A stretch of DNA of 64,000 bases from the NCBI GenBank assembly GCA_043745805.1, contig JAYTSD010000006.1, positions 32,001 to 96,000 on the forward strand, in the 5' to 3' direction. The translations under genes were made by a program, and so were the position numbers. A model generated the notes under the pieces. It searched no databases, was not told where the DNA came from, and saw nothing but the letters and a program-made list of their open reading frames with translations. Numbering within the stretch: position 1 is the stretch's first letter; every line of letters starts with the position of its first letter. Below are positions 19,828 through 50,320 of the stretch, piece after piece. The stretch is from Fibrobacteria bacterium (GTDB lineage Bacteria; Fibrobacterota; Fibrobacteria; UBA11236).

Positions 19828-19846
19828 GGTTACTCCTAAGTTACTG

Positions 19847-22250: not shown

Positions 22251-22364
22251 CCGATGAAAATCCTTTAATTTCGTTTTTCAACTCCTAAAAATAGGTAATT
22301 CATGCTCAATATCCCTGCACTTAAAAACACAATTCTTACAACTTTTAAAATCTGTCGAAAGGGT

Positions 22365-24298: not shown

Positions 24299-24449
24299 TT
24301 AGTCTCCTAATCCCCGTGGAGTGAAAGGCAAAAGTATAAATTTTAAACCAATGCCCCAATGTAAATGGCTGGCGCAAAAGCGAGGTTAAATTATATTTGC
24401 CACTTTGTTGGGAATTGAGAGCCTATGCCAATAAAAATGAAGGTGAAAC

Positions 24450-33803: not shown

Positions 33804-34439
33804 TTAAAAAGGGGTTTTCCGCATCCAAATTTCCCATTCTCTATCCACAAAATCCCATTCTGGATTTTGGTTTATATCACGAAGATTTTTCAATAACTCA
33901 ATAAAATCATTGTAATAAATAGCCGGAAATTCAAAGTAGGTTAAAAAGTCGACGCCGTGATTTTTTTCTAGGTAACGTGAATGATACAGTTTACGAAATA
34001 TTTTTGAAGCGAAGGGGAGGCCAATAGCAATATGCCCTATTGCTTTAGCGGAGGGCTTTAAATAGGTTAATCGCTCATCCGAAGCCATTGCCCACCAAGC
34101 TGAATTTTTACGAATGGGAATGAGTACCGCATAAGTTTCACTGCTCGATGGATATTCAGGCGTTGAAAGCGATAAAAGTTCTTCCCGTTTGGGTTGGTCG
34201 GTATATTGCAAATGTTGTGCGCAGCCAATGAGATAGGGGCAATCTATTTTTAATTCCGAAGGTAAAAGTGCGCTTGGGGTTTCTAAACGATAAATGTTGC
34301 TTTGGGGATGGGGATAATATTCGGGCTCGCCTTTAATGGAAGATATACTTTCAAAGCGACAAACACTTAGGCGCATGCCCTCTGGTAAATTACTTTGTAA
34401 AGCAAGAGGAAGTTTTTCAAAGAAAAAATAAGTCCACAT
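33804..34439 (-). CDS. cld: Short (clade 2-like) chlorite dismutase
   Basis: LIPIRKNSAWW..ASDER, proximal His GHIAIG, distal Arg IFRKLYHSR, DFLTYFEF, PEWDFVDRE. Confidence 0.75.
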   Translation of the reverse strand: MWTYFFFEKLPLALQSNLPEGMRLSVCRFESISSIKGEPEYYPHPQSNIYRLETPSALLPSELKIDCPYLIGCAQHLQYTDQPKREELLSLSTPEYPSSSETYAVLIPIRKNSAWWAMASDERLTYLKPSAKAIGHIAIGLPFASKIFRKLYHSRYLEKNHGVDFLTYFEFPAIYYNDFIELLKNLRDINQNPEWDFVDREWEIWMRKTPF

Positions 34440-35879: not shown

Positions 35880-35988
35880 GGCAAATCCTTTGCTGTGGGG
35901 CTTTCCCCGGTGTGTGTATTCTAAATGTTAACTATGGCCACTGCTTTGTGTGCCTGGTATTTTATGACAGTTTTATATGTCCCTAAAA

Positions 35989-36801
35989 CTATGCTGCTTG
36001 ATGCAAATGCGTGCTGATTAAGTAATGCAGGAGCTCCTTTCTTAAGCGTAGATAATCCGGACTTTCCATTACGCTTTCACGTGTACGTGGTCTTGGGATA
36101 TTTACATCCACAATTTCTGCTATGCGTGCTTTAGGCCCATTCGACATTAATACAATGCGGTCGGATAGAAAAACGGCTTCATCGACATCATGTGTGATCA
36201 TAATCACAGTTTTTTTGTTTTTTTCCCAAATAGCGGTTAATTCATCTTGCATAAATCCACGCGTTAAAGCATCGAGCGCGCCGAAGGGTTCATCCAAAAG
36301 CATCACCATGGGATCCGCCGCAAAGGCGCGTGCCAAGCCTACGCGCTGTTTCATACCGCCCGAAAGCTCTCCCGGTTTTTTTTGCGCATGGCCAGAAAGA
36401 TGCACCATATCCACATACTTGCGGGTTTCCTCTAGGCGGAAGGCGCGGTTTTTATCCGCATGCACACTATCCACGGAGGTTTTAACATTATCAAAAACAG
36501 TTAACCAAGGTAAAAGAGAATGAGATTGAAATACCACAGCTCTATCTAAGCCGGGACCCGTAACTTGCTTGTCATTTACGAGAACGGCTCCAGCGCTGGG
36601 CATAGAAAGGCCGGCTACCAAATTAAGCAAAGTACTTTTTCCACATCCTGAATGGCCGATGATGCTGATAAATTCGCCCTTAGCTATTTCCAAATTCACA
36701 TCTTCTAAGGCGTAGTAACGTGAAGCACCGCTTCCGAACCATTGGTGTACGCCTTGCAGGTGTACAAATTTTTGTTCTTTTTCCGAATTAATATTTTCCA
36801 T
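35989..36801 (-). CDS. nrtD: Nitrate ABC transporter ATP-binding subunit (NrtC/NrtD type)
   Basis: GHSGCGKST, VVFQSHSLLPWL, LSGGMKQRVG, LLDEPFGALDALTR, THDVDEA, MSNGP. Confidence 0.88.
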   Translation of the reverse strand: MENINSEKEQKFVHLQGVHQWFGSGASRYYALEDVNLEIAKGEFISIIGHSGCGKSTLLNLVAGLSMPSAGAVLVNDKQVTGPGLDRAVVFQSHSLLPWLTVFDNVKTSVDSVHADKNRAFRLEETRKYVDMVHLSGHAQKKPGELSGGMKQRVGLARAFAADPMVMLLDEPFGALDALTRGFMQDELTAIWEKNKKTVIMITHDVDEAVFLSDRIVLMSNGPKARIAEIVDVNIPRPRTRESVMESPDYLRLRKELLHYLISTHLHQAA

Positions 36802-36809
36802 ATAATCTC

Positions 36810-37715
36810 CTACGCACTCATCTCAGTACCGAATAAACGAGCAATTCCCGCCATCAAACGATCAAGTGTTAGTCCAACCAGACCAACATATACCACCGAC
36901 ACTATAATATCGCTGAGGCGGGAACTATTCCAAGAATCCCAAATGAAAAATCCAATACCCACACCACCGGTTAACATTTCGGCAGCCACAATAGCGAGCC
37001 AAGCCATACCAATAGCGATGCGCAAGCCGGTGAATATATAAGGCGCAGCCGCAGGGAGAAGGATTTTGAAAAAATAACGAGTGCCTCGGATATTATAAAC
37101 CTTAGCTACATTGTCAAAGTCTTTAGGAATGCGACGTACACCCACCGAAGTATTGATTAATATGGGCCACACTGCGGTTATGAATATCACAAATATGGAA
37201 GAAGGGTTTGCTTGATTAAATATGGCTAAAGAAATAGGCAACCATGCCAATGGGGGTATCGTGCGTAATACTTGGAAAAAAGGATCGAAAGCCTTATAAG
37301 CCATGACTGATTTTCCTAAAATAATTCCAACAATTATGCCTACAAATGCGGCCAAGGAATAACCAATACCCACGCGGGCCAAAGAAGAAAGTAATTGCCA
37401 GCCCAAACCTTTATCATTGGCGCCATTATCAAAAAACGGATGGGCTATATAACCCCAACTTTCGCGAATAGTTTTAACCGGACCGGGTAAGGTTACCCCC
37501 TGGCTTTGGCTATAAATTTCCCAGAACAAACCAATAAAAAATAAAGCGACAAGAGGAAGAATGATGGTTTGCGCCTTTTCACGACGACGCAAGGTTTTTT
37601 CGTCTTCTTCTTTTTCTGCGACACTCTCAAAACCCACATTACTGGAGGATGGCATCGAAGAGGTTCGCTTCGATGTTTCAGAGACTAATTTTGTATCAGA
37701 TGAATTGAGTAACAT
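36810..37715 (-). CDS. nrtB: Nitrate ABC transporter permease
   Basis: PFFDNGANDKGLGWQ, QVLRTIPPLAWLP, GLRIAIGMAWLAIVAAEMLTGGVGIGFFIWDSWN. Confidence 0.9.
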   Translation of the reverse strand: MLLNSSDTKLVSETSKRTSSMPSSSNVGFESVAEKEEDEKTLRRREKAQTIILPLVALFFIGLFWEIYSQSQGVTLPGPVKTIRESWGYIAHPFFDNGANDKGLGWQLLSSLARVGIGYSLAAFVGIIVGIILGKSVMAYKAFDPFFQVLRTIPPLAWLPISLAIFNQANPSSIFVIFITAVWPILINTSVGVRRIPKDFDNVAKVYNIRGTRYFFKILLPAAAPYIFTGLRIAIGMAWLAIVAAEMLTGGVGIGFFIWDSWNSSRLSDIIVSVVYVGLVGLTLDRLMAGIARLFGTEMSA

Positions 37716-37732
37716 ATAGCTAACAGTCCTTT

Positions 37733-39043
37733 TTATTTTTTCGCGCCAGTTTTTTTGCCATCAATATTTTTAATTTTTAATTTGGCTAAGTAAGCTTCTG
37801 GATCCTTTGGATCAAAGGTGACACCATCAAAGAAGGTTTCGATACCGCGTGAATCGGATTCGGGAATCATGGCGCTTTGACCAATTTCTTTAGCGCATTC
37901 TTTCCAAATATCGGAGCGATTAACGGCATTCACAACCTTATCATAATCTACGCCATTAGGTAAAAATCCCCAGCGACGGGTTTCCGCTAAAAACCATTTA
38001 TCATGACTCTTGTAAGGAAAGGAAGCATGATCCATCCAATACTTCATGAATTCACCGGTCTTTTTAGGACGGCCATCGCCATAGTCAGTAATTCCTTTGT
38101 TACGGGGTAACAAATCTTCTATATTGCAATTAATCCAATTTTTTTGCGCTAAAATTCTGGACATTTCTTCTTTGTTTTCTGGCTTATCACACCAGATTTG
38201 CGCTTCCATAATGGCCTTCACTATAGCTTTGGTGGCAATGGGATGCGCATCCACCCAATCTTTACGCATGGTGAAAGATTTTTCTGGATGATCTTTCCAA
38301 ATCTCTTGGGTTTGTAAAGCGGTAAATCCAATTTTTTGATTAATTAATTGTTGATTCCAAGGTTCACCTACACAGAAGGCATCCATATTACCTACGCGCA
38401 TATTCGCTACCATTTGTGGAGGTGGAATTACAATAGTGGATACATCCAGATCAGGATCAATACCTGCGGCGGCTAACCAATAACGCACCCAATAATTATG
38501 GGTTCCCGTAGGAAAAGTCATGGCAATTTTAAGTGGTACTTTTTTCTTTTTGCCATTCTCAACATAAGGCTTAAGCGGCGAAGCATCTTTGGTGATCTTT
38601 AAATCCATGTACTTGGAAGCGACGGAGATAGCTTGATTATTATAATTCAAACGACATAATATATACATGGGAATGGGAACATTACCCTTGGTGATCAAGC
38701 CCAAGCTCATGGAATAGGGCATGGGGGTTAAAATATGTGCGCCATCAATGCCACCATTGCCAGAACCCAATTCTAAATTGTCACGCGTAGCACCCCACGA
38801 CGCTTGTTTTAAAACTTCCACATCGGGCATGCCATATTTAGCAAAAAGTTTTTTTTCTTTAGCTATGGCGAGTGGTGCAAAATCGGTAAGCGCGATATAC
38901 CCTAATTTAGCTTTAGTGGTTTCGGGCGTTTGAGCAACAACGGAGGTTGACAAAGAGGTTAATATTACCGTTACCCCTAATAAGGTTTTTAAAAAAGATT
39001 TAGACGGATAAATATATCGAGGTGTTTTTTTCCATAAAGACAT
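37733..39043 (-). CDS. nrtA: Nitrate ABC transporter substrate-binding protein (NrtA/CmpA family)
   Basis: Signal peptide; KLGYIALTD, QASWGATRDNL, TFPTGTH, IPPPQMVANM, CVGEPWNQ, HPEK, ETFFDG. Confidence 0.9.
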   Translation of the reverse strand: MSLWKKTPRYIYPSKSFLKTLLGVTVILTSLSTSVVAQTPETTKAKLGYIALTDFAPLAIAKEKKLFAKYGMPDVEVLKQASWGATRDNLELGSGNGGIDGAHILTPMPYSMSLGLITKGNVPIPMYILCRLNYNNQAISVASKYMDLKITKDASPLKPYVENGKKKKVPLKIAMTFPTGTHNYWVRYWLAAAGIDPDLDVSTIVIPPPQMVANMRVGNMDAFCVGEPWNQQLINQKIGFTALQTQEIWKDHPEKSFTMRKDWVDAHPIATKAIVKAIMEAQIWCDKPENKEEMSRILAQKNWINCNIEDLLPRNKGITDYGDGRPKKTGEFMKYWMDHASFPYKSHDKWFLAETRRWGFLPNGVDYDKVVNAVNRSDIWKECAKEIGQSAMIPESDSRGIETFFDGVTFDPKDPEAYLAKLKIKNIDGKKTGAKK

Positions 39044-39084
39044 TTGGCATACTCCTGCTCAGACTTAAAAGATGGCATGTACGA

Positions 39085-39115
39085 CCAAAAGCCCGGACGG
39101 ACCGGAATCAGTTGG
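39085..39115 (-). ncRNA. Conserved 31-nt leader hairpin, copy in nrtA 5' UTR (putative cis-regulatory RNA)
   Basis: CCAACTGATTCCGGTCCGTCCGGGCTTTTGG, 28/31 identical to 46469-46499. Confidence 0.55.
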
Positions 39116-39147
39116 AAAGCGCTCAATTGTGAGCTATCCATGGTTAA

Positions 39148-39163
39148 AGCAAGCGATGTGCCA
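39148..39163 (-). promoter_or_regulatory. Sigma-54 -24/-12 promoter of the nrtABC operon
   Basis: TGGCAC-ATCGC-TTGCT matches consensus TGGCAC-N5-TTGC. Confidence 0.8.
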
Positions 39164-39383
39164 TTCTATTAAAAAGAATATTTTGCGGCGATTACGTTGT
39201 TTTATTATGACAGAAGATGGTGTGAAAAATAAAATGCCAATAAATGTCAAATTTTTTTGTCAAGACTCTACACTTATTCACACTTATTACAATTATTGTC
39301 AGTCAATAGTAAATGTCGACCTACAGGCCATATAAACAATGGCTTATAGGGCATGACAAAAAATAATTTATTATCAAATGAAT

Positions 39384-40277
39384 TTATTTGTGGTTTTGAA
39401 ATGGTGTAAATTCGGTTTTATGTCCGTCAAGCGTAAAATAATTTTTCTCATCTTTTATTAATACCGCCGACTTTATTCCTAAATCCACCATTTTAATAGG
39501 TGTTTCGCGATGACGATTTTTAAAGGCAGTTTTTAGGGCCGTCGTGCCAGAGGCTAAATCCATAATTTCCCAATTTTTAAAATAAGTTATAGCACCTTCG
39601 GCTTGTAAGCCTAGTGATCCTTTTACCAAAGGAATTTGCGTTCCCGTTGTTCCTGCAATGCGAACCTTAGAGCAGCTCATGGTTACAAAGCTATTCACCT
39701 TAATTTCCAAACTATCGTCCCATACAAATACTTCAATGGAATTCCAGCCACTCACTTCATGTTTCGCATTTTTCACGACATGCAATCGTCCAGTTGCCGC
39801 TCCAACTGTTGCTGCCACACCGCCACTATCCTTCGACACGTAGCGCGTAAGGTCCTTAGCATCGGCGGTAATATTCACCCATGCATTGGTGGTCCACAGG
39901 CTTCCCGCATCTCCGGGCATGGTTTGAATTTCCAATCCATCGGGCCAAACTTTATCTTTAATAATGTGATAGAGTAAGCCGGTATTTCCATTGGCCTTAT
40001 ATTGTAAGCGAGTGCGATAGCGTGTGTATTGAGTTTCCGTAGCAATGTAGCCAGTTACATTATTGTTAATCATTAATTGATTAGAGTCCGGCAAGGGTTT
40101 GAAGTTTATGGAGTCCTTACGGTTTGTGCTGCCAAAGGTATATAAGCCATCTAAATTTTTCCCATTAAAAACTTTAACCCAAGTGGGTTCTGCTTGACTG
40201 GTAGTATAATATCCGCTTGCTAAGAGGAAGAAAACAAAAAATGAAAGCATTTTTTTTGAACGAGAAGTAAAATTCAT
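39384..40277 (-). CDS. Secreted DUF1080 (3-keto-disaccharide hydrolase-like) protein with C-terminal tail
   Basis: Signal peptide, WVKVFNGKNLDG, NTGLLY, LEIQ, GWNSIEV, GSLGLQAEG..YFKN; ATG at 40277 after GGAGG. Confidence 0.75.
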   Translation of the reverse strand: MNFTSRSKKMLSFFVFFLLASGYYTTSQAEPTWVKVFNGKNLDGLYTFGSTNRKDSINFKPLPDSNQLMINNNVTGYIATETQYTRYRTRLQYKANGNTGLLYHIIKDKVWPDGLEIQTMPGDAGSLWTTNAWVNITADAKDLTRYVSKDSGGVAATVGAATGRLHVVKNAKHEVSGWNSIEVFVWDDSLEIKVNSFVTMSCSKVRIAGTTGTQIPLVKGSLGLQAEGAITYFKNWEIMDLASGTTALKTAFKNRHRETPIKMVDLGIKSAVLIKDEKNYFTLDGHKTEFTPFQNHK

Positions 40278-40431
40278 AAGGTCCTCCATATTTTGTTATG
40301 CACCATATTTCCCCAAAATAATGGCAACCGGTAATTAGAGGTAAATGTAAAGCGAAGCGGAATAATTTTCTGGGCGATTTGCAAAAAAAGCTCAGGCAGT
40401 AGCATAAAAACGAAATTGTTTAGTAGGAATA

Positions 40432-41469
40432 TTAAGCTTTGTCTCCTCTATTCTCTAAAGCACTTTGGTATTCGCCTTCATGACAAATAGCAGTAAGGTT
40501 TAAATTTTCCACTTCTTTTTCAGTAACATGACCAAAACGCAACATGGTTTGCAAATACCATTTCGCATGCTTAGGATTGGGATAGGAGGCGCCTTCACCT
40601 GCAAAGCGTAAAAAATTTTGTGGGAAAATTTTGCGTTTTCCACCCGCTTCTAATTCACTATTCAAAGCGTTTTCTAAAAGACTTTGGGAGGTGTTTACAT
40701 AACGCTTTCCCGATAGCAGCGTAGCCGCTTCTTTATGGTTTTCTTTTTTTTGTAACCATTGCGCTGCCGAAAAAAGTGCGCGTAATACGGCAGCATGTGC
40801 TTCTTGATTTTGTTGTAACCAAAAATTTTTTAATCCTAAAACTTTTTCGCCACAAGGAGGAGCGCAATCTTCGCTAACACCTACGATAAATCCTAATTTT
40901 GAAATAGCTGCCCTTTGATTCCAAGGTTCTCCCGCACAAAATCCATCAATGGCTCCCGTGCGTAATTGCCCGACCATTTCTTGCGGAGGTACTACTTTTA
41001 AAACAATATTATCGCCAATTGCCAAACCCGCTTTTGCTAACCATATACGCCATAAATATTCATGTGTGCTGCGCGGAAATACAATCCCTAAGCGCAAAGG
41101 CTCGGAAGCCTTTTCATTTTGCAACCAATGGGCTAAGGATAAAGCATCACTCACTCCGGCATTCCATAAACGGTTGCTCAAAGTAATGGCATTACCATAT
41201 TGACTCAATGTATAAGCGTAACCGCAAGGTTCCGCAGGACCATGATGCCCCAAGCTTATTTGTAAAGGCAATGTGATAAGCATATGAGCGGCTTGAATAT
41301 CATCGTTTAATAAGCGCTGACAAATTTGTCCCCAATTTTGAAACTTGCAAAGCTCCACCGGGATATTTTCTTTTTCAAAAAATCCCAATTCTTTAGCAAT
41401 AACTAATGGGGCGCAGTCCGCAAGCGGAATGAAGCCGATACGAAGAATGGAGGTGGTGGTAAAATTCAT
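40432..41469 (-). CDS. nasS: Cytoplasmic NrtA-fold nitrate sensor (NasS-like)
   Basis: LRIGFIPLADCAPL directly at the N-terminus (no signal peptide), GNAITLS, FPRSTH, VVPPQEMV, GFCAGEPWN, EKVLG. Confidence 0.75.
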   Translation of the reverse strand: MNFTTTSILRIGFIPLADCAPLVIAKELGFFEKENIPVELCKFQNWGQICQRLLNDDIQAAHMLITLPLQISLGHHGPAEPCGYAYTLSQYGNAITLSNRLWNAGVSDALSLAHWLQNEKASEPLRLGIVFPRSTHEYLWRIWLAKAGLAIGDNIVLKVVPPQEMVGQLRTGAIDGFCAGEPWNQRAAISKLGFIVGVSEDCAPPCGEKVLGLKNFWLQQNQEAHAAVLRALFSAAQWLQKKENHKEAATLLSGKRYVNTSQSLLENALNSELEAGGKRKIFPQNFLRFAGEGASYPNPKHAKWYLQTMLRFGHVTEKEVENLNLTAICHEGEYQSALENRGDKA

Positions 41470-41614
41470 ATAAGCTTTAAGTGAGAATTAAAGTAATTCT
41501 TGAACATCAAAATTGTGTAGCTTTTTTTTTAAAACACCGGTAAAATCGTGAAAAGGTTTAAAAAAATCGTTTGTTTAAAAACAAGTGGAAGTATTCAATA
41601 ATCTGGAGCATAAA

Positions 41615-43246
41615 ATGAGTTCTAATCAACAACCTCGCCAAAATATTTTTGCTTCTGCTTGGTCGCAAATACGGCAGGGAAATGCAACTTTGCTCGTGAT
41701 TTTGTCCATGTCCGGTTTCGTTTTGTTTTGGATATTTTCTTCACAAACATTGAATACTGTCAAGGTGAATGGTGAAATGTATAAGAATATTGTGCGCGGT
41801 AAGGATTTGATTGCCGATATTCTCCCTCCTCCTGAATATATACTCGAATCGTATTTGGTGGTTTTACAATTATGTGATGAAACGGATCCAGCAAAGCTGC
41901 AACAACTTTTCGATAAAAGTAAATCCTTGAAAAAAGATTTTTTAGATAGGCATGCTTATTGGGATGGTGATTTGCCCGCAAACGAAATGCGCACGACATT
42001 GTTAGAAACGTCATATGCACCAGCAATGGAGTTTTATAAAATTCGCGATGAGCAATTTTTACCGCTCATTCAAGCTGGAAAAAAAGCAGAAGCTAAGGCC
42101 TTAGCCGCAGGATCCATGAAAGTGGTATATGAAGCGCATCGTCAGGCAATTGATAAAGTGGTGGCCTTGTCCACCGAGCATAATTCGGCCTATGAAGCCT
42201 CAGCTAATGGCTTAATCAAAAAGCGTACACTCATGTTAACATTACTCGGGTTTTTTATTTTGGTGGTAAATGTATTTGGTTTTGTAACTATGCGTAAGGT
42301 TATTGCGCAACAATTGAAAGAATTGTTAGCCGCACTTAATGCTTTGGGTGAAGGCAATCTTACTTATAAATTAAATATGGTCGAAGGATCAGAGTTTGGT
42401 AAAATTGGAAAATCATTAAATCGCGGTATGGAAAAAGTGGCGGATACGATTAAAACTATTCGCCATAATGCGGATTTATTGTCGGGTTATGCACAAAATA
42501 TGTTGAAAGAAAATTTAGAAATTGGAAGCTCCATTCAAAAAATCTCCAGCCAAGCCAAGCATGTGTCGGACAATGCGGAACAAGTGGGACGAGACTCACA
42601 AACATTAGCCGCCGGTACTGAAGAAATGACGGCGAGTATTAAAGAAATTTCTCGTAATACGTCTTCTGCCTCTGAAGTGGTATCGGGCATGGTTTCCAAA
42701 TTACAATTAACGGATACCGGTGTGACCAAGCTCAGAGAAAGTAGTGAACAAATTGGGCAATTCATAACGGAAATTACCGCGATAGCCGAGCAAACCAATT
42801 TATTGGCTTTGAATGCCACCATTGAAGCAGCACGCGCAGGTGAGTCCGGTAAAGGCTTTGCTGTGGTGGCGAGTGAAGTAAAAGAATTGGCTAAAGCCAC
42901 GGCTAAGGCTTCGGATGAAATTATTCGTCGTATAACAGTTATTCAAAGTGATACTCAAGGTGCTGCCAATAATATTCGCGATATTCGTTTGATTGTTGGC
43001 AATGTGCATGATTACCAAAGTTCCATAGCAAGTGCCGTGGAAGAGCAAAGTGTCACGACTTCGGAAATGAGTGGTAACATTAATGCTTCGGCCCAAAATA
43101 GTATTGAAATTGCTAATACGGTAACAGCGCTTGCTGAATCGATGGGTGATACTGCCAAAGGTGCCGAAAAAAATAGTGAAGCGGCTAAAAAATTAACCGC
43201 CATGGCTACTGAATTAAAAACTTTAGTCGGCCAGTTCCAATGTTGA
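41615..43246 (+). CDS. Methyl-accepting chemotaxis protein (TM, periplasmic sensor, TM, HAMP, MA domain)
   Basis: [37 protein letters not shown]; sensor [17 protein letters not shown] at 41615 after GGAG. Confidence 0.92.
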
Positions 43247-43251
43247 TTTTT

Positions 43252-44988
43252 TTAGCGTAATAATAACCACAGCTCAATACTTGCTGCGAGTGTCGTTAGC
43301 CCAGCAAGTAATTTCCATACCAGCAAGGGATTGCGTTCGAGTAGAGGACGGAATACCGGCGCATGGACAACTTCTTCCTGTTTTTCCAAATGAAATTGTA
43401 ATTCCGATACCGACTCATATCTTTTTTTAGGATCCGCTTCCGTAGCTTTTTGTAATGCCGCTTCCAACCAAAAAGGGGTTTCGGGACGAAAGCGTGAAGG
43501 CGGAATCCATCGAATAAAACGTGGGGAAGAAAAGGGTTCGATTTCCCCATACGGATATTTGCGGGTTAATAATTCATAAAGGGTAACTCCTAAAGCATAA
43601 ATATCCGACTGTACCGAAGTTCTATCTCCACGAAAAACCTCGGGAGCCATATAGCTTGGGGTTCCCGGGGCTGAGAAAGCTAATCCCTCGCCGGTAATGG
43701 GTTGCAAGCCATCCACTTGAATAATTCCCAAATCCATAATTTTAACTTTGCCATTACGATCGATAAAAATATTGTCGGGTTTAATATCGCGATGCACAAT
43801 ATCCTTGCTATGCAAAACATGTAAACCTTTACAAATTTGCAAACCAATTTGTACTACTTCATCCGCCGAAAAATAATGCCCACGCTTGATACGCTGGCGT
43901 AAAGTTTCGCCTTGATAAAACGGCATTGCATAATATAAACAGGATCGTCGGCCCGAAGTAATAGGTAACACGGGTATGACATATTCACTATAAATACGTT
44001 TGCCTACCCATTCCTCGCGGAGAAATCGATCGATAAACACTTTATCATCGCGAAAACGGGGATGCGGAAATTTGAGCGCCACACTTTCGCCGGTACGGGT
44101 ATCTTCCGCTTGGTAGATGGAGGCCATATAGCCCTCATGCACGGTGCGTAAAATGCGGAAATCATCTAGTATTTGCCCAGGTAACACTGTGGTTGCGAAA
44201 GGTAAATCCGAAGCTTCGCTTTGCAAATCGGCTTCTTGATGTTCTGGAAGGCTTTCAATATGTACGACTTGGGTGGTGATATTATCTTGAGAGCCGAAGC
44301 TAAAGGCGGCATGTACTAATTGATCCGCGGCAGTTTGGGGATCTATTTCTCCTAAGGCAATGGAAAGTAGTTTTTCATCGGGTAGGCATTTGTTTAAACC
44401 ATCTGTGCATAGCACAAAAATATCGCCGATTTTAAGTTCGTCTTGAAAAAAATCAGCATGAATATGACTGTCTAAACCAATTGCACGCGAAACCACATTA
44501 CGCATTTCGGGATGATCCCAAACATGATCTTGAGTTAATAATTTTATTTGTTTATTACGAATTAAATAGATGCGACTATCGCCTACATGCGAGACAAAAT
44601 AACGATGGCCCTTAATGATTAAAGCCGAAAATGTAGTGGCGGCACCCCCGCGACTTTGTTCAGCTTTTTCCGGTTGATAAATACTTTGATTGAGTTGGGT
44701 TAAAATTTGTTCAACGCATTTTTGAATACTCCATGTGTCAGGAGTACTATAATAATCAGCAAGAAAATTTTTTACCGATTTCTCGGCAGCAGCTCTGCCA
44801 CCATGGCCAATACCCACACCATCGGCTACCACAACGGCCACACCCTTTGATTGCAGGGCATCGCCTTCGGGTGTTACGCAACCATAAAAATCTTCATTGC
44901 CTTGTCGACGCCCTTGAGAGGAATGGACACCAAGAGCGACTTTTAATTTTTTCAAACGCGTGCTTTTGTCACTAAGGGTGAACCCCAT
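43252..44988 (-). CDS. Bifunctional PP2C phosphatase / Ser-Thr kinase
   Basis: NED, VADGVG, HVGDSRIY, LCTDG, SQDNIT; then VALK, HRDIKPDN, DLG, GTPSYMAPE, DIYALG; C-terminal TM. Confidence 0.9.
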   Translation of the reverse strand: MGFTLSDKSTRLKKLKVALGVHSSQGRRQGNEDFYGCVTPEGDALQSKGVAVVVADGVGIGHGGRAAAEKSVKNFLADYYSTPDTWSIQKCVEQILTQLNQSIYQPEKAEQSRGGAATTFSALIIKGHRYFVSHVGDSRIYLIRNKQIKLLTQDHVWDHPEMRNVVSRAIGLDSHIHADFFQDELKIGDIFVLCTDGLNKCLPDEKLLSIALGEIDPQTAADQLVHAAFSFGSQDNITTQVVHIESLPEHQEADLQSEASDLPFATTVLPGQILDDFRILRTVHEGYMASIYQAEDTRTGESVALKFPHPRFRDDKVFIDRFLREEWVGKRIYSEYVIPVLPITSGRRSCLYYAMPFYQGETLRQRIKRGHYFSADEVVQIGLQICKGLHVLHSKDIVHRDIKPDNIFIDRNGKVKIMDLGIIQVDGLQPITGEGLAFSAPGTPSYMAPEVFRGDRTSVQSDIYALGVTLYELLTRKYPYGEIEPFSSPRFIRWIPPSRFRPETPFWLEAALQKATEADPKKRYESVSELQFHLEKQEEVVHAPVFRPLLERNPLLVWKLLAGLTTLAASIELWLLLR

Positions 44989-46166
44989 GTCGTGCGCCAG
45001 CGTTTTTTAACACTCATTAAACCAATGAAAGCACAAATTCCCATGCCCGCAAAAATAATAAGTCCCATACGATAATCACCGGTATATTGTTTACAAAATC
45101 CTAATGAAGTGGCTAAATAAAATCCGCCCATGCCACCAGCCATTCCGACCAGCCCAGTAAGTACGCCAATTTCACGACGAAAACGTTGGGGGATTAATTG
45201 AAATACGGCACCATTACCCATGCCAAGGCAAGTCATGCACAAAACAAAGAGTACCACAGAAATCCAAAGTATATGTGGAGCAAACGCAATTGTAAGCAAA
45301 CAAGCTGCTACACATAAATAAAGTGTTTGTAAAGATTTTATTCCACCGATTTTATCCGCTAGGTTACCTCCAAAAGGACGGGACATTGATCCCGCAAAAA
45401 CACAAGCCGCGGTTAAATAACCAGCCGTAACTGGCGAGATACCATATTGACTATTGAAATAAATCACTAAGCTCGAAGCCAATCCCACAAAGCCACCAAA
45501 AGTTACGAGATAGAAGAACATAAACCACCAAGCATCCTGGTCCCGTAAAACAGCTAAGTATTGCGAAAGTTTTTTAGGAGGAGGCGCATCAGGCGCATCT
45601 TTAGCGAGTATGGTAAAAATGATGAAAGTTATAGAGAGCGGAATTAAGGCTATTCCAAAAACGGCATTCCAACCATAATGATTGGCTAATAGCGGTGCAA
45701 ATAAAGCAGAAAATACCGTACCCGAATTTCCCGCTCCCGCAATACCCATTGCCAAACCTTGCGATTCGGGAGGATACCAACGTGAGGCCAGCGGCAAAGC
45801 AACGGCAAAGGCAGTCCCTGCTACACCTAATAAGATTCCCATGAAATACATTTCCTGCAAATTATGCAAATGAAATATCCAAGCCCATAATAAGCCAGCA
45901 ATAACTACAACTTGTGTGAGCATGCCGGTTTTTTTAGCGCCAATTTTATCCACGAAAATTCCTATGAAGAGACGCATAATAGCCCCTGCTAATACGGGGA
46001 CTGCGACCATTAAACCTTTTTGCGAAGGGGATAAGCCTAAATCGCGCGCTATGTGCACGCCTAGAGGGCCGAGTAAAACCCAAACCATAAAACTCATGTC
46101 AAAATAAAGAAATGCAGAAAATAATGTTGCCGGATGGCCCGCTTTCATAAAGCTTTTGATATTCAC
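44952..46166 (-). CDS. narK: NarK/NasA-family MFS nitrate/nitrite transporter
   Basis: LFSAFLYFDMSFMVW, FAVALPLASRWYPP..QG.AMGIAGAGNSG, TFGGFVG, GMGNGAVFQL.PQRF. Confidence 0.9.
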   Translation of the reverse strand: MNIKSFMKAGHPATLFSAFLYFDMSFMVWVLLGPLGVHIARDLGLSPSQKGLMVAVPVLAGAIMRLFIGIFVDKIGAKKTGMLTQVVVIAGLLWAWIFHLHNLQEMYFMGILLGVAGTAFAVALPLASRWYPPESQGLAMGIAGAGNSGTVFSALFAPLLANHYGWNAVFGIALIPLSITFIIFTILAKDAPDAPPPKKLSQYLAVLRDQDAWWFMFFYLVTFGGFVGLASSLVIYFNSQYGISPVTAGYLTAACVFAGSMSRPFGGNLADKIGGIKSLQTLYLCVAACLLTIAFAPHILWISVVLFVLCMTCLGMGNGAVFQLIPQRFRREIGVLTGLVGMAGGMGGFYLATSLGFCKQYTGDYRMGLIIFAGMGICAFIGLMSVKKRWRTTWGSPLVTKARV

Positions 46167-46204
46167 GATTCAACCCCTAAAATTCATTTGTTGCTGTTTG
46201 AGAA

Positions 46205-46220
46205 AGCAAACCTTAGGCCA
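46205..46220 (-). promoter_or_regulatory. Sigma-54 -24/-12 promoter of the narK-kinase operon
   Basis: TGGCCT-AAGGT-TTGCT, about 40 nt upstream of the GTG start. Confidence 0.65.
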
Positions 46221-46429
46221 TTAATTTTTCTTCTGCTTTACAAATGTCTAAATAACCTGAATAAATTGGCTTAAATTGATAATTATCGTTTAAAATTGGC
46301 CATTGTAAAAAATACCATTAGTTCTGGTAGGGTAATTTATTGTCATTTGTTGTTAAACAATAAAAGACAATTGTCGACAATCAAAGTTAATTAAAGACCA
46401 CAAACCCATGATACACGTGGTTTACAGAG

Positions 46430-46445
46430 TGGTACAAAATTTGCG
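46430..46445 (+). promoter_or_regulatory. Sigma-54 -24/-12 promoter of the nirA operon
   Basis: TGGTAC-AAAAT-TTGCG. Confidence 0.65.
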
Positions 46446-46468
46446 TTACCTAATTTTGGTTTTACAAC

Positions 46469-46499
46469 CCAACCGATTCCGGTCTGCCCGGGCTTTTGG
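46469..46499 (+). ncRNA. Conserved 31-nt leader hairpin, copy in nirA 5' UTR (putative cis-regulatory RNA)
   Basis: CCAACCGATTCCGGTCTGCCCGGGCTTTTGG, 28/31 identical to 39085-39115 (-). Confidence 0.55.
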
Positions 46500-46532
46500 A
46501 CGACGACTCAATGCTTATTCAGGAGTACGCCC

Positions 46533-48404
46533 ATGGCAACGGAAAACACAACTCAAACATTTGTTTCGCCAATATCCCAAATGCATGCAAGCACGGCCAA
46601 TCAAGGCTCTCCAGTTATTGCAGGAAAAGATTTTTCGTCTGAACAAAAAGAATATCTCGATGGTTTTTTTAGGGGTTTGCTATCGACATCCCTAAATGTG
46701 AACGGGGTAAATCGCAATTCAACCACTGCCATTACGACTGCTACTATTCCTTATGGTGAAGCCGAAGCCATTGGTTATAAGGCGCAATTGGCTTGGACGG
46801 ATGCAGGTAAAAAATTAAGTAAAGAAGAACAAATAAAATTTGCAGCCAATCCTCTTGATAGCTGGGGAAAGATTCGCGCCTTATCAGTAGAAGGCCAGTT
46901 GCCGCAAGGGCCGGACATTTTCCATTTCAAATATCACGGTCTCTTCAATGTTAGCCCTGCGCAAGAAAGTATGATGTGTCGTATGCGGCTTCCAGGCGGT
47001 GTACTTAAATCCTATCAGCTCGAAGGCATTGCTAATGCTGCCGAAAATTTTGGTGGAGGCTATGCGCATATTACTACGCGCGCAAATTTTCAAATTCGTG
47101 AAATACCCGCAACCGGTATGGAACCTTTGCTTACAACCTTACATGAAGTAGGTATTGTGCCACGGGGATCGGGTGCCGATAATATTCGCAATGTAACCGG
47201 CAATCCCACGGCAGGCATTGATAAGCAAGAGTTTTATGATGTTTTGCCTTTATGCAAAGAATTGCATCATTACATTCTCAATCATCGTGAAATGTACGGT
47301 TTACCGCGCAAGTTCAATGTGGCTTTTGATGGGGGCAATTCCATTGCCGCCTTAGAAGAGACTAATGATATTGGTTTTAAAGCCGTAAAGGTATTCTCGG
47401 GGGCGGGTTCGGGACATGAGTTTGCAACAGGCGTTTATTTTCGCGTCGCGTTAGGCGGCATTACCGGCCACAAAGATTTTGCCCGTGACACAGGTCTTTT
47501 ATTAAAACCGGAAGAATGTTTGCCAGTTACAGTGGCGATGATCAAAGTATTCATTGCCAATGGTGATAGAGGACAACGCGGCAAGGCGCGCTTAAAATAT
47601 GTATTGGATAAATGGGGCTTTGCCAAATTTTTAGAGGAAACACAGAAGTTACTCCCCTTTCCCTTAAATTATTTAGCCGCCGAAAAATGTGAATTTGCTC
47701 CGGCCATTGATAAACTCGCGCATGTAGGCATACATACCCAAAAACAAAAGGGACTTAGCTATATTGGGATTCATACGCCGGTGGGTCGCTTGAGCGTTAA
47801 ACAAATGCGCGACCTCGCAAGCATTGCGCAACAATTTGGTTCGGGAACTATTCGCTTAACGGTTTGGCAGAATTTAATCCTTTCGGACATTTCAAATAGC
47901 CAAGTGCCACAAGCTCTACAGGCATTGGAAGCAGCGGGCTTTGCATATCAACCGAATATGGTGCTTGCAGGCTTAGTCTCTTGCACGGGTGCCGAAGGTT
48001 GCAAGTTTGGTATGGCTGCCACCAAAAGCACCGCAGTGGTTCTGGCGGAATATTTAAATGGTAAGGTGGATTTGGATCAACCTGTGAATATTCATTTAAC
48101 CGGTTGTCCGCATTCTTGCGCACAACATTATATCGGAGATATTGGTCTATTAGCTACTTCTGCGGAAGTGAACGGAGAAAAAGTAGGTGCCTTCCATATT
48201 TATGTGGGCGGCGGTTATGCCGCTGAAAGAGGTATCGCACGACAAATTATGAAAGCGATTCCTATTACCACACTTCCGCAAACTTTAGAATTTGTTTTGA
48301 AAACCTATTTACAAAAACGCAAAGGCTCCGAAAGTTTTGCGGCATTTACTCAACAACTCGAAGAAACAGATTTGCTCACCATGTTCACACTAGCGCAAGC
48401 ATAA
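46533..48404 (+). CDS. nirA: Siroheme/[4Fe-4S] assimilatory nitrite reductase (NirA family)
   Basis: FKYHGLF, HITTRANFQIR, GADNIRNVT, LPRKFN, NDIG, RLTVWQN, SCTGAEGCKFG, HLTGCPHSCAQH. Confidence 0.88.
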   Translation: MATENTTQTFVSPISQMHASTANQGSPVIAGKDFSSEQKEYLDGFFRGLLSTSLNVNGVNRNSTTAITTATIPYGEAEAIGYKAQLAWTDAGKKLSKEEQIKFAANPLDSWGKIRALSVEGQLPQGPDIFHFKYHGLFNVSPAQESMMCRMRLPGGVLKSYQLEGIANAAENFGGGYAHITTRANFQIREIPATGMEPLLTTLHEVGIVPRGSGADNIRNVTGNPTAGIDKQEFYDVLPLCKELHHYILNHREMYGLPRKFNVAFDGGNSIAALEETNDIGFKAVKVFSGAGSGHEFATGVYFRVALGGITGHKDFARDTGLLLKPEECLPVTVAMIKVFIANGDRGQRGKARLKYVLDKWGFAKFLEETQKLLPFPLNYLAAEKCEFAPAIDKLAHVGIHTQKQKGLSYIGIHTPVGRLSVKQMRDLASIAQQFGSGTIRLTVWQNLILSDISNSQVPQALQALEAAGFAYQPNMVLAGLVSCTGAEGCKFGMAATKSTAVVLAEYLNGKVDLDQPVNIHLTGCPHSCAQHYIGDIGLLATSAEVNGEKVGAFHIYVGGGYAAERGIARQIMKAIPITTLPQTLEFVLKTYLQKRKGSESFAAFTQQLEETDLLTMFTLAQA

Positions 48405-48424
48405 ATTTTATTTCAAGGATAGCG

Positions 48425-50317
48425 ATGCAATCACCTATTATTCCGGAATCCGCACCCTTTAATTTAGAACAACGTAGTTGGCTGAATGGATTTTTGGCGG
48501 GTTTACAAAATGTGCAAAACCTCAATGGTAATGCAGGATTTTCCTCACAAGAGAGTAGTATCGGACAGGGTACGAGTACCTCGAATGTTATGCGTCAACC
48601 TTTGCTTATTTTATTTGGTTCCCAAAGTGGAAATACTGAGGCTTTGGCTAATGTTATGGCCGATAAAATCAAAGCGGCCTCCTTTGCCGGTATTGCGGGT
48701 GGTCAAGCCTGGGATATTCGCATATTAGGCATGGAAAAATTCAAAGATATTATTTGGGAAAAAGAAAAAGCCATTTTGTTAATGTCAAGCACTTGGGGTG
48801 ACGGGGATATGCCCGATAATGCCATTGATTTTTGGAATTATATGGGTGGAACCGATTTGCCGAATTTAACCGCCTTACATTTTGCAGTATTAGGCTTGGG
48901 CGATAAAAACTATGCACGCTATTGCCAAGCCGGTAAAGAATGGGATAAGCGCTGGGCCGATATAGGGGCGCAACGCTTATTGCCTCTTACCGAATGCGAT
49001 ACCGATTATGAAGCTACTGCGGATACTTGGATTTTACAAGTTACCCAAGCTTTAGAGCCTTTATATGCGATGGGAATTAATACTGATAAAAAAACTAATA
49101 GTACAGCTACTTCCATTGCTTCGACATCAGCTACGGTATCCTTAAAAGGGGAGTCCGCTAAATCAGAAAGCGCGGAAATAAAGTTCGATAAAAAAAATCC
49201 TTTTCCGGCTCCCTTACTCGAGAATCATCCATTAAATGCCAAAGGTTCGGGTAAAGATACCCGTCACATTGCACTTTCCTTAATGGGTAGTGGATTAGAA
49301 TACAAAGTAGGCGATGCCTTAGGAGTTTGTCCCAATAACTGTTATGACTTAACCGATAAAATAATTATCGCACTCAATTGTATGGGTAATGAAAAGGTTA
49401 CACTAAACTCTGGTGAGTCGCTGACTTTAAGAGCCGCCTTGCTCTCCAAATTAGATTTACAAAAAACCTCCTTACCCTTAATTCATGGTTTAGCTAATTG
49501 CTCAGAAAATTCCTCGGAAAAAAAATCTTTGTCGGAATTATTAGGTTCTCAGGATTCCGAAAAAGCAGCGCAATTTTTACAAGGCAAAGATGTACTAAAT
49601 GTATTACAACTTTTCCCTCACACTAAATTGGATCCACAGTTATTAATTTCGGCTCTTGGCAAACTTGGGCCAAGGCTTTATTCAATTTCTTCTTCGCCCA
49701 AAGAAAATATTGATGAAGTGACTTTGACTATTGGCGTGGTGCGTAATATGGTGGAAAATCGTTTGCGCCGAGGTGTATGCTCTACGTTTTTGGCCGAACG
49801 CTTACCCTTAGGCATGACGGCTCCGGTATTTGTGCATAAATCCACTACTTTTGGTTTGCCAACTGAAAATGGTAAACCCATTATTATGGTGGGACCAGGA
49901 ACAGGCATAGCCCCCTTCCGTGCTTTCTTGCAAGAGAGACGTATCACGGGAGATACGGGTAAAAACTGGTTATTCTTTGGTGATCAAAAACGCAATTATG
50001 ATTTCTTATACGCCGAAGAATGTATTGCTTGGCAAGAAGAAGGTTTTTTAAATGAATTGGATTTGGCTTTCTCGCGCGATCAAGAAGAAAAAATTTATGT
50101 ACAAAGTTTAATGCTGCAAAAGTCCAAACAACTTTGGAATTGGTTAGAAGAGGGGGCTTACTTTTATGTCTGTGGCGATGCCAAGCGCATGGCTAAAGAT
50201 GTCGATCACGCTTTGCAAAGCGTGATTAGCAAAGAGGGCGGATTTTCGGAAGACAAAGCTAAAGAATATTTATCTAAGATGAAAGAACAAAAACGCTATC
50301 AGCGCGATGTTTATTAA
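48425..50317 (+). CDS. Diflavin NADPH reductase (CysJ / sulfite reductase alpha-like)
   Basis: Flavodoxin GSQSGNTE, STWGDGDMPDN; FAD RLYSISSS; NADPH GPGTGIAPFR, CGDAKRMAKDV, RYQRDVY. Confidence 0.9.
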   Translation: MQSPIIPESAPFNLEQRSWLNGFLAGLQNVQNLNGNAGFSSQESSIGQGTSTSNVMRQPLLILFGSQSGNTEALANVMADKIKAASFAGIAGGQAWDIRILGMEKFKDIIWEKEKAILLMSSTWGDGDMPDNAIDFWNYMGGTDLPNLTALHFAVLGLGDKNYARYCQAGKEWDKRWADIGAQRLLPLTECDTDYEATADTWILQVTQALEPLYAMGINTDKKTNSTATSIASTSATVSLKGESAKSESAEIKFDKKNPFPAPLLENHPLNAKGSGKDTRHIALSLMGSGLEYKVGDALGVCPNNCYDLTDKIIIALNCMGNEKVTLNSGESLTLRAALLSKLDLQKTSLPLIHGLANCSENSSEKKSLSELLGSQDSEKAAQFLQGKDVLNVLQLFPHTKLDPQLLISALGKLGPRLYSISSSPKENIDEVTLTIGVVRNMVENRLRRGVCSTFLAERLPLGMTAPVFVHKSTTFGLPTENGKPIIMVGPGTGIAPFRAFLQERRITGDTGKNWLFFGDQKRNYDFLYAEECIAWQEEGFLNELDLAFSRDQEEKIYVQSLMLQKSKQLWNWLEEGAYFYVCGDAKRMAKDVDHALQSVISKEGGFSEDKAKEYLSKMKEQKRYQRDVY

Positions 50318-50320
50318 TTC

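Follow-up and report, generated by a model that had tools for sequence, protein, structure and literature searches.

Two nitrate-assimilation operons with a shared leader motif

The window analysed here, the whole 64-kb stretch of DNA from a Fibrobacteria bacterium, carries two operons for nitrate assimilation (Table 1). One comprises nrtA, nrtB, nrtC and an alginate-export-type porin, the other nirA, a CysJ-like flavoprotein, a 4Fe-4S/DmsC-like protein and the molybdopterin nitrate reductase nasA, and the gene order of both is kept in relatives. The leaders of nrtA and nirA each contain a copy of a 31-nt motif, which an initial annotation made from the sequence had singled out as a candidate regulatory RNA. 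Its description of the pair is accurate: the copies are identical at 28/31 positions, the three differences (motif positions 6, 17 and 19) are all unpaired in a CCAA/UUGG plus CCGG/CCGG fold, and each copy is placed between a sigma-54-type promoter and a CAGGAGTAYGCC ribosome binding site (RBS) with its start codon. From the -24/-12 spacing, nrtA transcription would start near 39137, placing the motif at about +23, and nirA transcription probably starts near 46456, with the motif at about +13. Allowing up to three mismatches, a pattern search of the window found these two sites only and no match in any of 100 dinucleotide-preserving shuffles of it (0/100). With the same tolerance, a 25-nt core was found at the same two sites and nowhere else in the 3,949,059-base genome; its backwards control had no match.

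Table 1. Positions of the leader elements and genes of the two operons in the window
Feature	Position	Strand	Detail
Operon 3′ of copy 1	34551..39043	-	Pfam NMT1_2, BPD_transp_1, ABC_tran, Alginate_exp
Alginate-export-type porin	34551-35879	-	
nrtC	35989-36801	-	
nrtB	36810-37715	-	
nrtA	37733-39043	-	
nrtA start region	39038..39057	-	RBS (CAGGAGTAYGCC, 39057-39046), start codon (39043-39041), first codons; CAGGAGTATGCC = RBS
Anti-start segment, nrtA leader	39079..39094	-	motif positions 22-31 plus 6 nt of 3′ flank (GGGCUUUUGGUCGUAC)
Motif copy 1, nrtA leader	39085..39115	-	CCAACTGATTCCGGTCCGTCCGGGCTTTTGG (39115-39085); model R1, 52.5 bits
Copy 1 P1	39115-39112 (CCAA) with 39088-39085 (UUGG)	-	
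Copy 1 P2	39105-39102 (CCGG) with 39096-39093 (CCGG)	-	loop UCCGU, 39101-39097
Sigma-54-type promoter, nrtA operon	39149..39163	-	TGGCAC-N5-TTGC
NrtA-like protein (‘nasS-like’)	40432..41469	-	345 aa, cytoplasmic, no signal peptide
narK	44952-46166	-	
Sigma-54-type promoter, nirA operon	46430..46444	+	TGGTAC-N5-TTGC
Motif copy 2, nirA leader	46469..46499	+	CCAACCGATTCCGGTCTGCCCGGGCTTTTGG; model R1, 45.3 bits
Copy 2 P1	46469-46472 with 46496-46499	+	
Copy 2 P2	46479-46482 with 46488-46491	+	loop UCUGC, 46483-46487
nirA start region	46520..46535	+	RBS (CAGGAGTACGCC, 46520-46531), start codon ATG at 46533
Operon 3′ of copy 2	46533..54252	+	
nirA	46533-48404	+	NirA family NF007126, 805 bits
CysJ-like flavoprotein	48425-50317	+	
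4Fe-4S/DmsC-like protein	50321-52048	+	
nasA	52015-54252	+	molybdopterin nitrate reductase

Distribution of the motif

Covariance model R1 gave 38 matches of at least 43.7 bits in 26/32 genomes of one uncultured Fibrobacteria family, all of them at nitrate-assimilation (nas) loci, and the next-best match in the family genomes scored 31.2 bits. The motif is a regulon-wide element of this family. Filtering left 49 non-redundant instances, a count that overstates independence because within-class sequences are close kin; 23 lie upstream of nirA, 14 of nrtA and 5 of narK, and the remainder include a formate/nitrite-transporter (nitrite-channel) gene, a porin, a nasA operon and an nrtA paralogue. 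The annotation had reported the narK leader to be free of the motif, which is true of the source genome but not of relatives, whose narK leaders carry it. All 49 instances share the orientation of their gene and have a sigma-54 promoter (TGGYAY-N5-TTGC) 17–57 nt to their 5′ side. Among genomes of the family, the motif occurs in 26/28 with a nirA orthologue and in 0/4 without nirA. One genome (G008) has nirA and the sigma-54 promoter and lacks the motif, which is therefore not part of the promoter.

Conservation extends across six genera, in which NirA proteins are just 47–61% identical to that of the window, and among 185,579 species genomes scanned, no convincing copy turned up beyond the family. 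Spacing varies between promoter and 5′ arm, between arm and core, and between core and start codon, and the motif would lie between +7 and about +45 from the inferred 5′ end. Some leaders bear an additional 5′ hairpin. A REP- or MITE-like dispersed repeat was rejected as an identity for the motif, there being two copies in the source genome and one to four per relative, with all 38 strong family matches at nas loci. Nor is it a known family: Rfam 15 had no gathering-score match in the 64-kb window or in the nas clusters of relatives (121 kb), and permissive Rfam scans gave matches at chance level only.

Conserved fold and covariation

The family consensus, CCAAYYG-N3/4-CCGGUCCGYCCG-NN-CYUUUGG, forms a single conserved hairpin with the 5-nt loop UCCGY in 33/33 short instances. 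The outer and inner stems drawn in the initial annotation are recovered for the isolated nrtA copy (((((..(..(((((.....))))))..)))), -8.4 kcal/mol), but the minimum-energy fold of the nirA copy uses a shifted outer register; compared with shuffles, neither isolated 31-mer has extra stability (z -0.70 for nrtA, -0.50 for nirA). The nucleotides of the loop and internal loop scarcely vary among the six genera. With P1 and the core of P2 invariant in the 33 distinct short instances, except for a single GC swap, the motif itself shows weak covariation (consensus energy -4.2 kcal/mol, covariation term -0.06). What variation there is consists of a compensatory change in the outer stem, GCAAC...UUUGC for CCAAC...UUUGG, in two genera, and of a varying pair that extends P2 (CG 8, UA 7, UG 7, AU 1).

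Expanded leaders bear on structure at the RNA level. In 14 leaders an insertion of 63–130 nt lies between 5′ arm and core, and RNAalifold closes CCAA:UUGG around the insertion in 10 g3 and 4 g4 leaders. The g3 insertion set pairs in 95.2% of cells, with 9/36 pairs changed on both sides; none of 500 shuffles reached the real values, and slid controls did not exceed 49.6% pairing or 3 pairs with two-sided change. These covarying inserted helices, which include G-U pairs, support an RNA-level function together with the one type of compensatory outer-stem change.

The same observations weigh on the idea that a transcription factor binds CCGGTCCGYCCGG and CCAAC on double-stranded DNA 3′ of the promoter. 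An invariant core without covariation is what protein-bound DNA sites display, and CCGG-N5-CCGG and CCAA-N23-TTGG are inverted repeats in DNA, but the repeats are not concentric (centres at positions 17 and 16) and in the 14 expanded leaders the halves stand 63–130 bp apart with RNA-type covariation, G-U pairs included, between them. The fixed gene-relative orientation (49/49), the range of promoter distances (17–57 nt) and the complementarity of the motif 3′ half to the start region also count against an operator, and we regard it as very unlikely. We give similarly little credence to a role in RNA stability or processing, or as an sRNA target, in which the motif would set mRNA half-life or be a site of cleavage or sRNA pairing without sensing nitrate. 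The position of the motif very near the inferred 5′ end (+7 to about +45) and the extra 5′ hairpin of some leaders would suit such a role, but a generic stabiliser would need neither a near-invariant sequence nor confinement to a single regulon.

Pairing with the start codon region

Several classes of leader are complementary to their own start region. Alignment folding (alifold) predicts the helix GGGCC.UUGG:CCAA.GGCCC (-19.7 kcal/mol) in 8 g4/g2 nirA leaders, UUGG.CAUAC:GUAUG.CCAA in 13 nrtA/narK leaders and GCCAU:AUGGC in 15 nirA leaders. In minimum-energy folds, at least four pairs join the start region to the motif 3′ half or its flank in 28/33 short leaders. Forcing P1 and P2 in these 33 leaders has a median cost of 7.1 kcal/mol and leaves the AUG at least partly paired in 22 of them. 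In the 107-nt nrtA leader of the window, the anti-start segment pairs with 39052-39038 (-30 kcal/mol, z -1.60; duplex z -1.99). In the minimum-energy fold of the nirA leader, GCCC and GGCA around the AUG pair with GGGC and UGCC of the motif, with a whole-leader z of just -0.27 and a duplex z of +0.11 against shuffles. Overall, start-region duplexes beat composition shuffles (z < -1.64) in only 15/46 leaders; they did not do so in g3 nirA, g4 narK and the window’s own nirA leaders, and the helices show almost no within-class compensatory change. Leaders complementary to their start codon region suggest control of translation, which we favour over attenuation, with support that is uneven.

In an attenuation model, P2 and the U-run that follows would together make a weak intrinsic terminator that a bound antiterminator protein lets polymerase pass, an arrangement functionally like the NasR/NasT leaders. 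The order of sigma-54 promoter and leader is that of the NasR/NasT systems as set out in PMC5424462. Under permissive settings, a terminator scan accepts the nrtA copy (5 pairs, tail CTTTTGGT) and rejects the nirA copy. The stem has only 4–5 pairs (about -8 kcal/mol), and the U tract, 3–4 U overall, is just UUU in 26/49 instances (CYUUUGG with Y = C), and in the conserved fold its bases pair with the 5′ arm. Neither the 16 receiver proteins of 128–302 aa nor a regular-expression search yielded an ANTAR protein, and there is one pentaloop hairpin as against two hexaloop hairpins. We regard an attenuator as improbable.

A proposed translational switch and its candidate regulators

With no Rfam family, no dispersed repeat and a sigma-54 promoter 5′ of the motif in 49/49 instances, the evidence supports the proposal of the initial annotation that the motif is an undescribed cis-regulatory leader RNA common to genes of nitrate uptake and of nitrite and nitrate reduction. 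We suggest that it is a lineage-specific, cis-acting nitrate/nitrite leader RNA, transcribed from sigma-54 promoters and acting as a translational switch. The promoters presumably report nitrogen limitation, to which the leader RNA would add a second control after initiation. One state would be the small two-helix form, with P1 (CCAA:UUGG), P2 (CCGG:CCGG), the UCCGY loop and a pyrimidine-rich internal loop. In the competing and predicted more stable state of many leaders, the motif 3′ half and adjacent bases would pair with the RBS or start codon region, so that the default state probably hides the start site. When nitrate or nitrite is present, recognition of the invariant P1/P2 fold by an effector (protein or small molecule) might shift the balance and allow translation. 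Taken whole, we give this explanation an even chance of being correct.

The cytoplasmic nasS-like protein encoded in the window co-occurs with the motif and is a candidate sensor; alternatively, it may be a detached regulatory domain of an NrtC-type transporter. The nas clusters of the family hold no recognisable gene for a pathway-specific transcription factor or RNA-binding regulator. Neither the ANTAR domain (Pfam) nor a NasT-type regulator was found among the genome’s 16 receiver-domain proteins of 128–302 aa, and a regular expression for ANTAR had no match; a whole-genome PF03861 search returned 0 matches, as did its controls, which makes it uninformative.

The lack of a recognisable regulator gene in the nas clusters, and of a REC-ANTAR protein among those 16, would also fit a protein-free riboswitch, in which P1 and P2 would form an aptamer that binds nitrate, nitrite or a metabolite of nitrogen status, with the start-region pairing as expression platform. 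Near-invariant loop and internal-loop nucleotides in six genera, a competing start-region helix and, as is typical of aptamers, variable peripheral insertions around a conserved core agree with this. The element is nonetheless very small, with low predicted stability, and its stems are invariant, whereas those of aptamers usually covary. Apart from fluoride sensing, no RNA is known to recognise a small oxyanion, and this too counts against a nitrate or nitrite riboswitch, which we consider unlikely.

Significance

What is known of pathway-specific control in bacterial nitrate assimilation comes mainly from the ANTAR antiterminators NasR and NasT. This Fibrobacteria family couples sigma-54 promoters to a different leader RNA, unrelated to the NasR/NasT leaders and common to the transcription units of the pathway (transporters, porin, nitrite reductase and nitrate reductase). 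The motif marks the regulon cleanly in an uncultured lineage and is a compact candidate for RNA-based sensing through a protein or a ligand, testable in vitro in a minimal form of 31 nt. If the effector were a small molecule, the motif would found a new class of riboswitch in a central pathway of the nitrogen cycle. As an aptamer for nitrate, nitrite or a closely linked nitrogen metabolite, which we consider unlikely, it would be the first RNA sensor of nitrate assimilation and among the smallest aptamers known, replacing the NasR/NasT protein regulators in this lineage.

Comparison with known systems

ANTAR target RNAs have two tandem hairpins with hexanucleotide loops, A at position 1 and G at position 4. 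The motif is unlike them, as had been noted at the outset, in having one hairpin with the pentaloop UCCGY; an ANTAR target was rejected on this basis (one pentaloop hairpin in 33/33 short instances) and for want of a convincing terminator overlap. The NasR and NasS-NasT leaders of Klebsiella, Azotobacter, Pseudomonas and Paracoccus nevertheless share its setting: PMC5424462 places them in nitrate assimilation, downstream of Ntr/sigma-54-type promoters, as a pathway-specific layer. A further likeness to NasS-NasT systems is the NrtA-like cytoplasmic protein encoded in the Fibrobacteria cluster. The motif differs in its complementarity to the start codon region, in having no convincing terminator and in that no ANTAR protein was found among the 16 receiver-domain proteins.

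The narK RNA (RF03032), like the motif, is a cis-regulatory candidate 5′ of nitrate-transporter genes. The narK motif reportedly stems from a survey of 224 motifs. The word ‘narK’ does not occur in the main text of PMC5737381. The RF03032 model begins with a sigma-54-like GGCAC-N5-UUGCU, and in the nrtA leader it matches the promoter part only (39162-39119; 13.7 bits, gathering score 43.2, E 1.8), leaving the motif outside the match; it has no match in the nirA leader. Membership of RF03032 was rejected on these grounds.

RAT hairpins, the targets of BglG/SacY-type antiterminators, are similar in being about 30 nt long and built of stem, asymmetric internal loop, stem and loop; the proteins that bind them are PTS-regulated, and the hairpins overlap strong terminators. 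Their sequence differs from that of the motif. Translational ON switches, among them riboswitches and protein-bound operators such as IRE/IRP, have no sequence or structural homology to it, and the likeness is functional only: a small 5′-UTR structure with an alternative pairing of the RBS or start codon.

Two copies of the element in a nitrate-assimilation cluster

Re-reading both sites bore out the initial annotation's account of a 31-nt element in the nrtA leader (copy 1, CCAACTGATTCCGGTCCGTCCGGGCTTTTGG) and the nirA leader (copy 2, CCAACCGATTCCGGTCTGCCCGGGCTTTTGG), with 28 of 31 positions identical and each copy lying between a sigma-54-type promoter and a similar ribosome-binding site, CAGGAGTAYGCC, followed by the start codon of nrtA or nirA. 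That annotation described a GC-rich element in AT-rich surroundings, and the element is conspicuous because genome G+C is 40%. No alignment between the two leaders extends beyond the promoter, the motif and the ribosome-binding site. With up to three mismatches, the window contains copies 1 and 2 only (0 of 100 shuffles match), and a 25-nt core searched at three mismatches finds these same two copies in the whole 3.95-Mb genome.

Copy 1 precedes nrtA, nrtB, nrtC and an alginate-export-type porin gene, while copy 2 precedes genes for NirA, a CysJ-like flavodoxin/FAD/NAD protein, a 4Fe-4S protein with a DmsC-like membrane anchor and a molybdopterin nitrate reductase. This electron-supply set is unusual for assimilatory reduction and is conserved in the family. 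Five genes separate the two operons, encoding a DUF1080 protein, a cytoplasmic NrtA-like protein (nasS-like), a chemoreceptor, a PP2C phosphatase-Ser/Thr kinase fusion and NarK.

Features of the window at and around the two leader-element copies
Feature	Coordinates	Strand	Remark
Surface-polysaccharide cluster	9174-26662		large
ORF	33804-34439		just 3' of porin gene
Alginate-export-type porin	34551-35879		last gene of nrtABC operon
nrtA	37733-39043	-	first gene after copy 1
Motif copy 1	39115-39085	-	nrtA leader
Sigma-54-type promoter	39163-39149	-	upstream of copy 1
nasS-like gene	40432-41469		cytoplasmic NrtA-like protein
Methyl-accepting chemotaxis protein	41585-43246		divergent from nasS-like gene
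PP2C-kinase fusion	43252-44988		37-nt overlap with narK 3' end
narK	44952-46166	-
Sigma-54-like promoter of narK	46206-46220	-	TGGCCT-N5-TTGC
Sigma-54-type promoter	46430-46444	+	upstream of copy 2
Motif copy 2	46469-46499	+	nirA leader
nirA	46533-48404	+	first gene after copy 2
nirA to nitrate reductase	46533-54252		electron-supply set
MazF/PemK-type toxin ORF	54563-54913		adjoins nasA 3' end

Several neighbours deserve mention in their own right. The porin gene closes the nrtABC operon across the family, has a separate motif copy of its own in one genome (G012, locus L072), and probably encodes a nitrate/nitrite porin; the ORF beside it matches chlorite dismutase at 21.7 bits, below the cut-off of 25. 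The position of the chemotaxis gene beside the nasS-like gene may point to nitrate taxis. The pairing of narK with the following PP2C-kinase fusion gene recurs in two relatives (G010 and G001). The polysaccharide cluster contains two asparagine-synthase paralogues, sugar epimerases and dehydrogenases, a flippase, glycosyltransferases and an export protein.

Distribution of the element

At up to two mismatches, the core CCGGTCYGYCCGGGCYTTTGG occurs in 25 of the 31 other genomes of the window's uncultured Fibrobacteria family (f1, 32 genomes), spanning all six genera, and in 4 of the 176 remaining genomes of the class. Three of these four (L062, L064 and L070, the fourth being L063) were inspected and are near-misses with no nitrate-assimilation gene downstream, as is a further near-match in another family (L068). 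An exact-pattern scan of one genome per species, across 185,579 species, returned 91 stretches, of which f1 accounts for about half; the other half were rejected, having neither the CCAAC arm nor a sigma-54 promoter and in many cases lying inside coding sequence. The 33 distinct short instances served to build a covariance model, which gave 38 matches of at least 43.7 bits, every one at a nitrate-assimilation locus, in 26 of the 32 family genomes; the next-best match scored 31.2 bits. A dispersed repeat, which the initial annotation had named as an outcome that would undo its reading, is ruled out by the two genome copies and by the confinement of all 38 matches to these loci.

NirA orthologues (47-61% identical) are present in 28 of the 32 family genomes, 26 of which carry the motif. 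In G044 the nirA leader runs off the contig, and in G008 nirA has a sigma-54 promoter and a short leader without the motif. The motif is absent from all four nirA-less family genomes, and five genomes of sister families have neither motif nor NirA orthologue. The family counts take in one genome flagged as unpublished (G021), without which 26 of 32 becomes 25 of 31 and the other counts are unchanged. A metagenome scan for outer-stem variants gave 29 matches, of which the 8 with a sigma-54 promoter were all CC...GG and the other 21 had neither feature; no new outer-stem variants were found. The initial annotation had not seen the motif in the narK leader, which holds for the window genome (a leader of only ~28 nt) but not for five relatives (G017, G010, G016, G020 and G047), whose narK leaders carry it.

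Anatomy across the family

Pooling all loci gave 102 distinct pattern matches, 49 of which pass a strict filter requiring a CCAAY arm and, no more than 200 nt upstream, TGG[CT]A[CT]-N5-TTGC (a single GCAAC case was admitted manually); instances at L014, L154 and L005 (minus strand) fail the strict regex alone and look real. The downstream gene is nirA in 23 instances, nrtA in 14, narK in 5, and an nrtA paralogue and the porin gene in 1 each. The remaining five were resolved separately as two nrtA-type leaders, nrtA of G017 and two G012 loci, namely a formate/nitrite-transporter gene followed by nirA and a 4Fe-4S/nasA operon. The consensus is CCAAY-YG-N3/4-CCGG-UCCGY-CCG-NN-C-Y-UUUGG, in which an outer stem P1 (CCAA:UUGG, the CCAA side being the 5' arm) can enclose an inner stem P2 (CCGG:CCGG, loop UCCGY). 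The promoter-to-arm distance is 17-57 nt, apart from a single outlier of 148 nt, in which the promoter call is probably spurious; on the inferred transcript the arm would thus lie between about +7 and +45.

Arm and core are 5-6 nt apart in 35 'short' instances and 63-130 nt apart in 14 'long' ones, the latter found in nrtA and porin leaders of two genera, g3 and g4. A leader peptide was considered, as a single frame is open through both window copies, and rejected because spacers of 5 or 6 nt and insertions of 63-130 nt keep no frame in the family.

Additional features accompany particular leader classes. The nrtA and narK leaders of g3 (e.g. L007:1330-1530) have a conserved GUCCGUGU box at the inferred 5' end that repeats the P2 loop sequence, and ACGGACC in the g3 insertion is complementary to both; this arrangement could provide a further, third partner for pairing or another binding site. 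A possible kissing pairing between the P2 loop and ACGGAC of g3 insertions was also noted, short GC-rich complements of this kind being common. In nirA leaders of g4 and g2 (e.g. L119:360-434), the spacer CGGUYC allows a CCGG-UYC-CCGG hairpin that would compete with P2, and a variable hairpin stands ahead of the 5' arm. CCAACCG has a match in the 3' region of 16S rRNA, which is a chance expectation.

RNA or DNA element

Since P1 and three P2 pairs are invariant in the 33 aligned rows, there are few countable changes inside the motif. CG forms the first P1 pair in 32 rows and is replaced by GC in one, and the pair extending P2 is CG in 8, UA in 7, UG in 7, AU in 1 and unpaired in 10. In the short motif 89.8% of cells pair, versus 87.5% in shuffles, and both-side changes number 13 cells versus 5.1 ± 2.4 (reached by 1 of 500 shuffles); its alifold consensus energy of -4.2 kcal/mol is weak. 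The GCAAC...UUUGC variant is found in two genera and, since the same nrtA paralogue lies downstream in both, may have arisen once.

Better evidence is found in the long leaders (10 of g3 and 4 of g4), in which RNAalifold closes CCAA:UUGG around the entire insertion. For g3, pairing extends to 95.2% of cells and both sides change in 9 of 36 pairs, a level of covariation that 0 of 500 shuffles reach, with slid partners giving at most 49.6% pairing and three both-side-changing pairs, though the shuffle comparison is somewhat favourable to structure because the structure was derived from the same alignment. Covariation in relatives, proposed in the initial annotation as a check, is seen in the long-leader insertions and is slight inside the motif, whose stems are nearly invariant.

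These data also bear on whether the motif could be a DNA operator. Its inverted repeats are not concentric at the DNA level, the motif has the same orientation in all 49 instances, every spacing varies, and the site is split by a 63-130-bp insertion with RNA-type covariation. An insertion of this kind between site halves is hard to reconcile with an operator, making one unlikely, and we consider it probable that the motif functions at the RNA level.

Predicted pairing with the translation start

The isolated 31-nt copies are not unusually stable (z -0.70 and -0.50). When whole leaders are folded, pairing between the 3' half of the motif and the start of translation is a common outcome, with three alifold solutions: GGGCC.UUGG with CCAA.GGCCC containing the AUG (8 g4/g2 nirA leaders, -19.7 kcal/mol), UUGG.CAUAC with GUAUG.CCAA just 5' of the AUG (13 nrtA/narK leaders, including the window nrtA), and GCCAU with AUGGC plus flanking pairs (15 nirA leaders). 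In the first two, P1 and the start-region helix are mutually exclusive because both use the UUGG arm. At least four start-region pairs appear in the minimum-energy fold of 28 of 33 short leaders, and forcing P1 and P2 costs a median of 7.1 kcal/mol (range 1.8-11.9). The window nrtA leader takes a start-pairing fold (-30 kcal/mol, z -1.60).

By such pairing, the motif 3' half would act on translation initiation. We regard this translational-switch step as evenly balanced, because the shuffle, forced-fold, covariation and kinship results count against it. Only 15 of the 46 leaders (8 of 38, plus 7 of 8 new ones) have a start-region duplex below z -1.64 against composition shuffles, and no excess over shuffles is seen in g3 nirA, g4 narK or window nirA leaders (the last with duplex z +0.11 and whole-leader z -0.27). 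With P1 and P2 forced, the AUG remains paired, at least in part, in 22 of 33 leaders. The start-region helices show hardly any covariation within classes, whose members are close kin. A transcription attenuator is a weaker candidate than the translational switch, as a permissive terminator scan accepts one window copy and not the other, and the U-run is just three nucleotides long in roughly half of the instances.

Candidate effectors

The genome has 65 receiver-domain matches, and among the 16 receiver proteins scanned (open frames of 148-308 aa, called ORFs of 128-302 aa) neither an ANTAR domain nor a NasT-type regulator was found. A whole-genome PF03861 search gave no match, but nor did its controls, making it uninformative, and an ANTAR regex had no genome match, which is weak evidence.

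The nasS-like gene is the only conserved cluster gene that is neither enzyme nor transporter. Orthologues (43-52% identical) occur in 23 of the 26 motif-positive genomes, the three misses being incomplete assemblies, and in none of the six motif-negative ones, including nirA-bearing G008, the sole genome separating the motif from the cluster as a whole. Counting against a role in RNA control, the solved structures closest to its product belong to C-terminal regulatory domains, those of cyanobacterial NrtC/CmpC (E 5e-53). In G004 the gene directly follows the two ATPase genes of an nrt operon, and its product may be a detached transporter regulator. The isoelectric point (7.1 in the window, 6.2-9.6 in relatives) is uninformative. 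As the clusters have no gene for a dedicated regulator, the RNA might sense a ligand directly.

Relation to known leader RNAs

The leader element is real, strongly conserved and regulon-specific, and it matches no described RNA family. Its conservation, its occurrence at nitrate-assimilation loci only and its lack of an Rfam 15 match uphold the initial annotation's proposal of an undescribed shared leader element. It most probably works as RNA, with translation initiation a plausible point of action. Identity with a known Rfam family, which the initial annotation held would tell against its proposal, was not found: neither the window nor 121 kb of relatives' clusters matches any Rfam 15 family at the gathering score. 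Literature searches on nitrate-assimilation leaders, narK motifs, Fibrobacterota and riboswitches turned up no description of the element. NasS-NasT leaders are among the matters treated in PMC5424462; narK is absent from the main text of PMC5737381, whose supplements may list Fibrobacteres intergenic-region motifs. Permissive Rfam scans returned only chance matches and the promoter part of RF03032 narK (13.7 bits), and it is to this promoter part that the alignment between RF03032 and the nrtA leader is confined.
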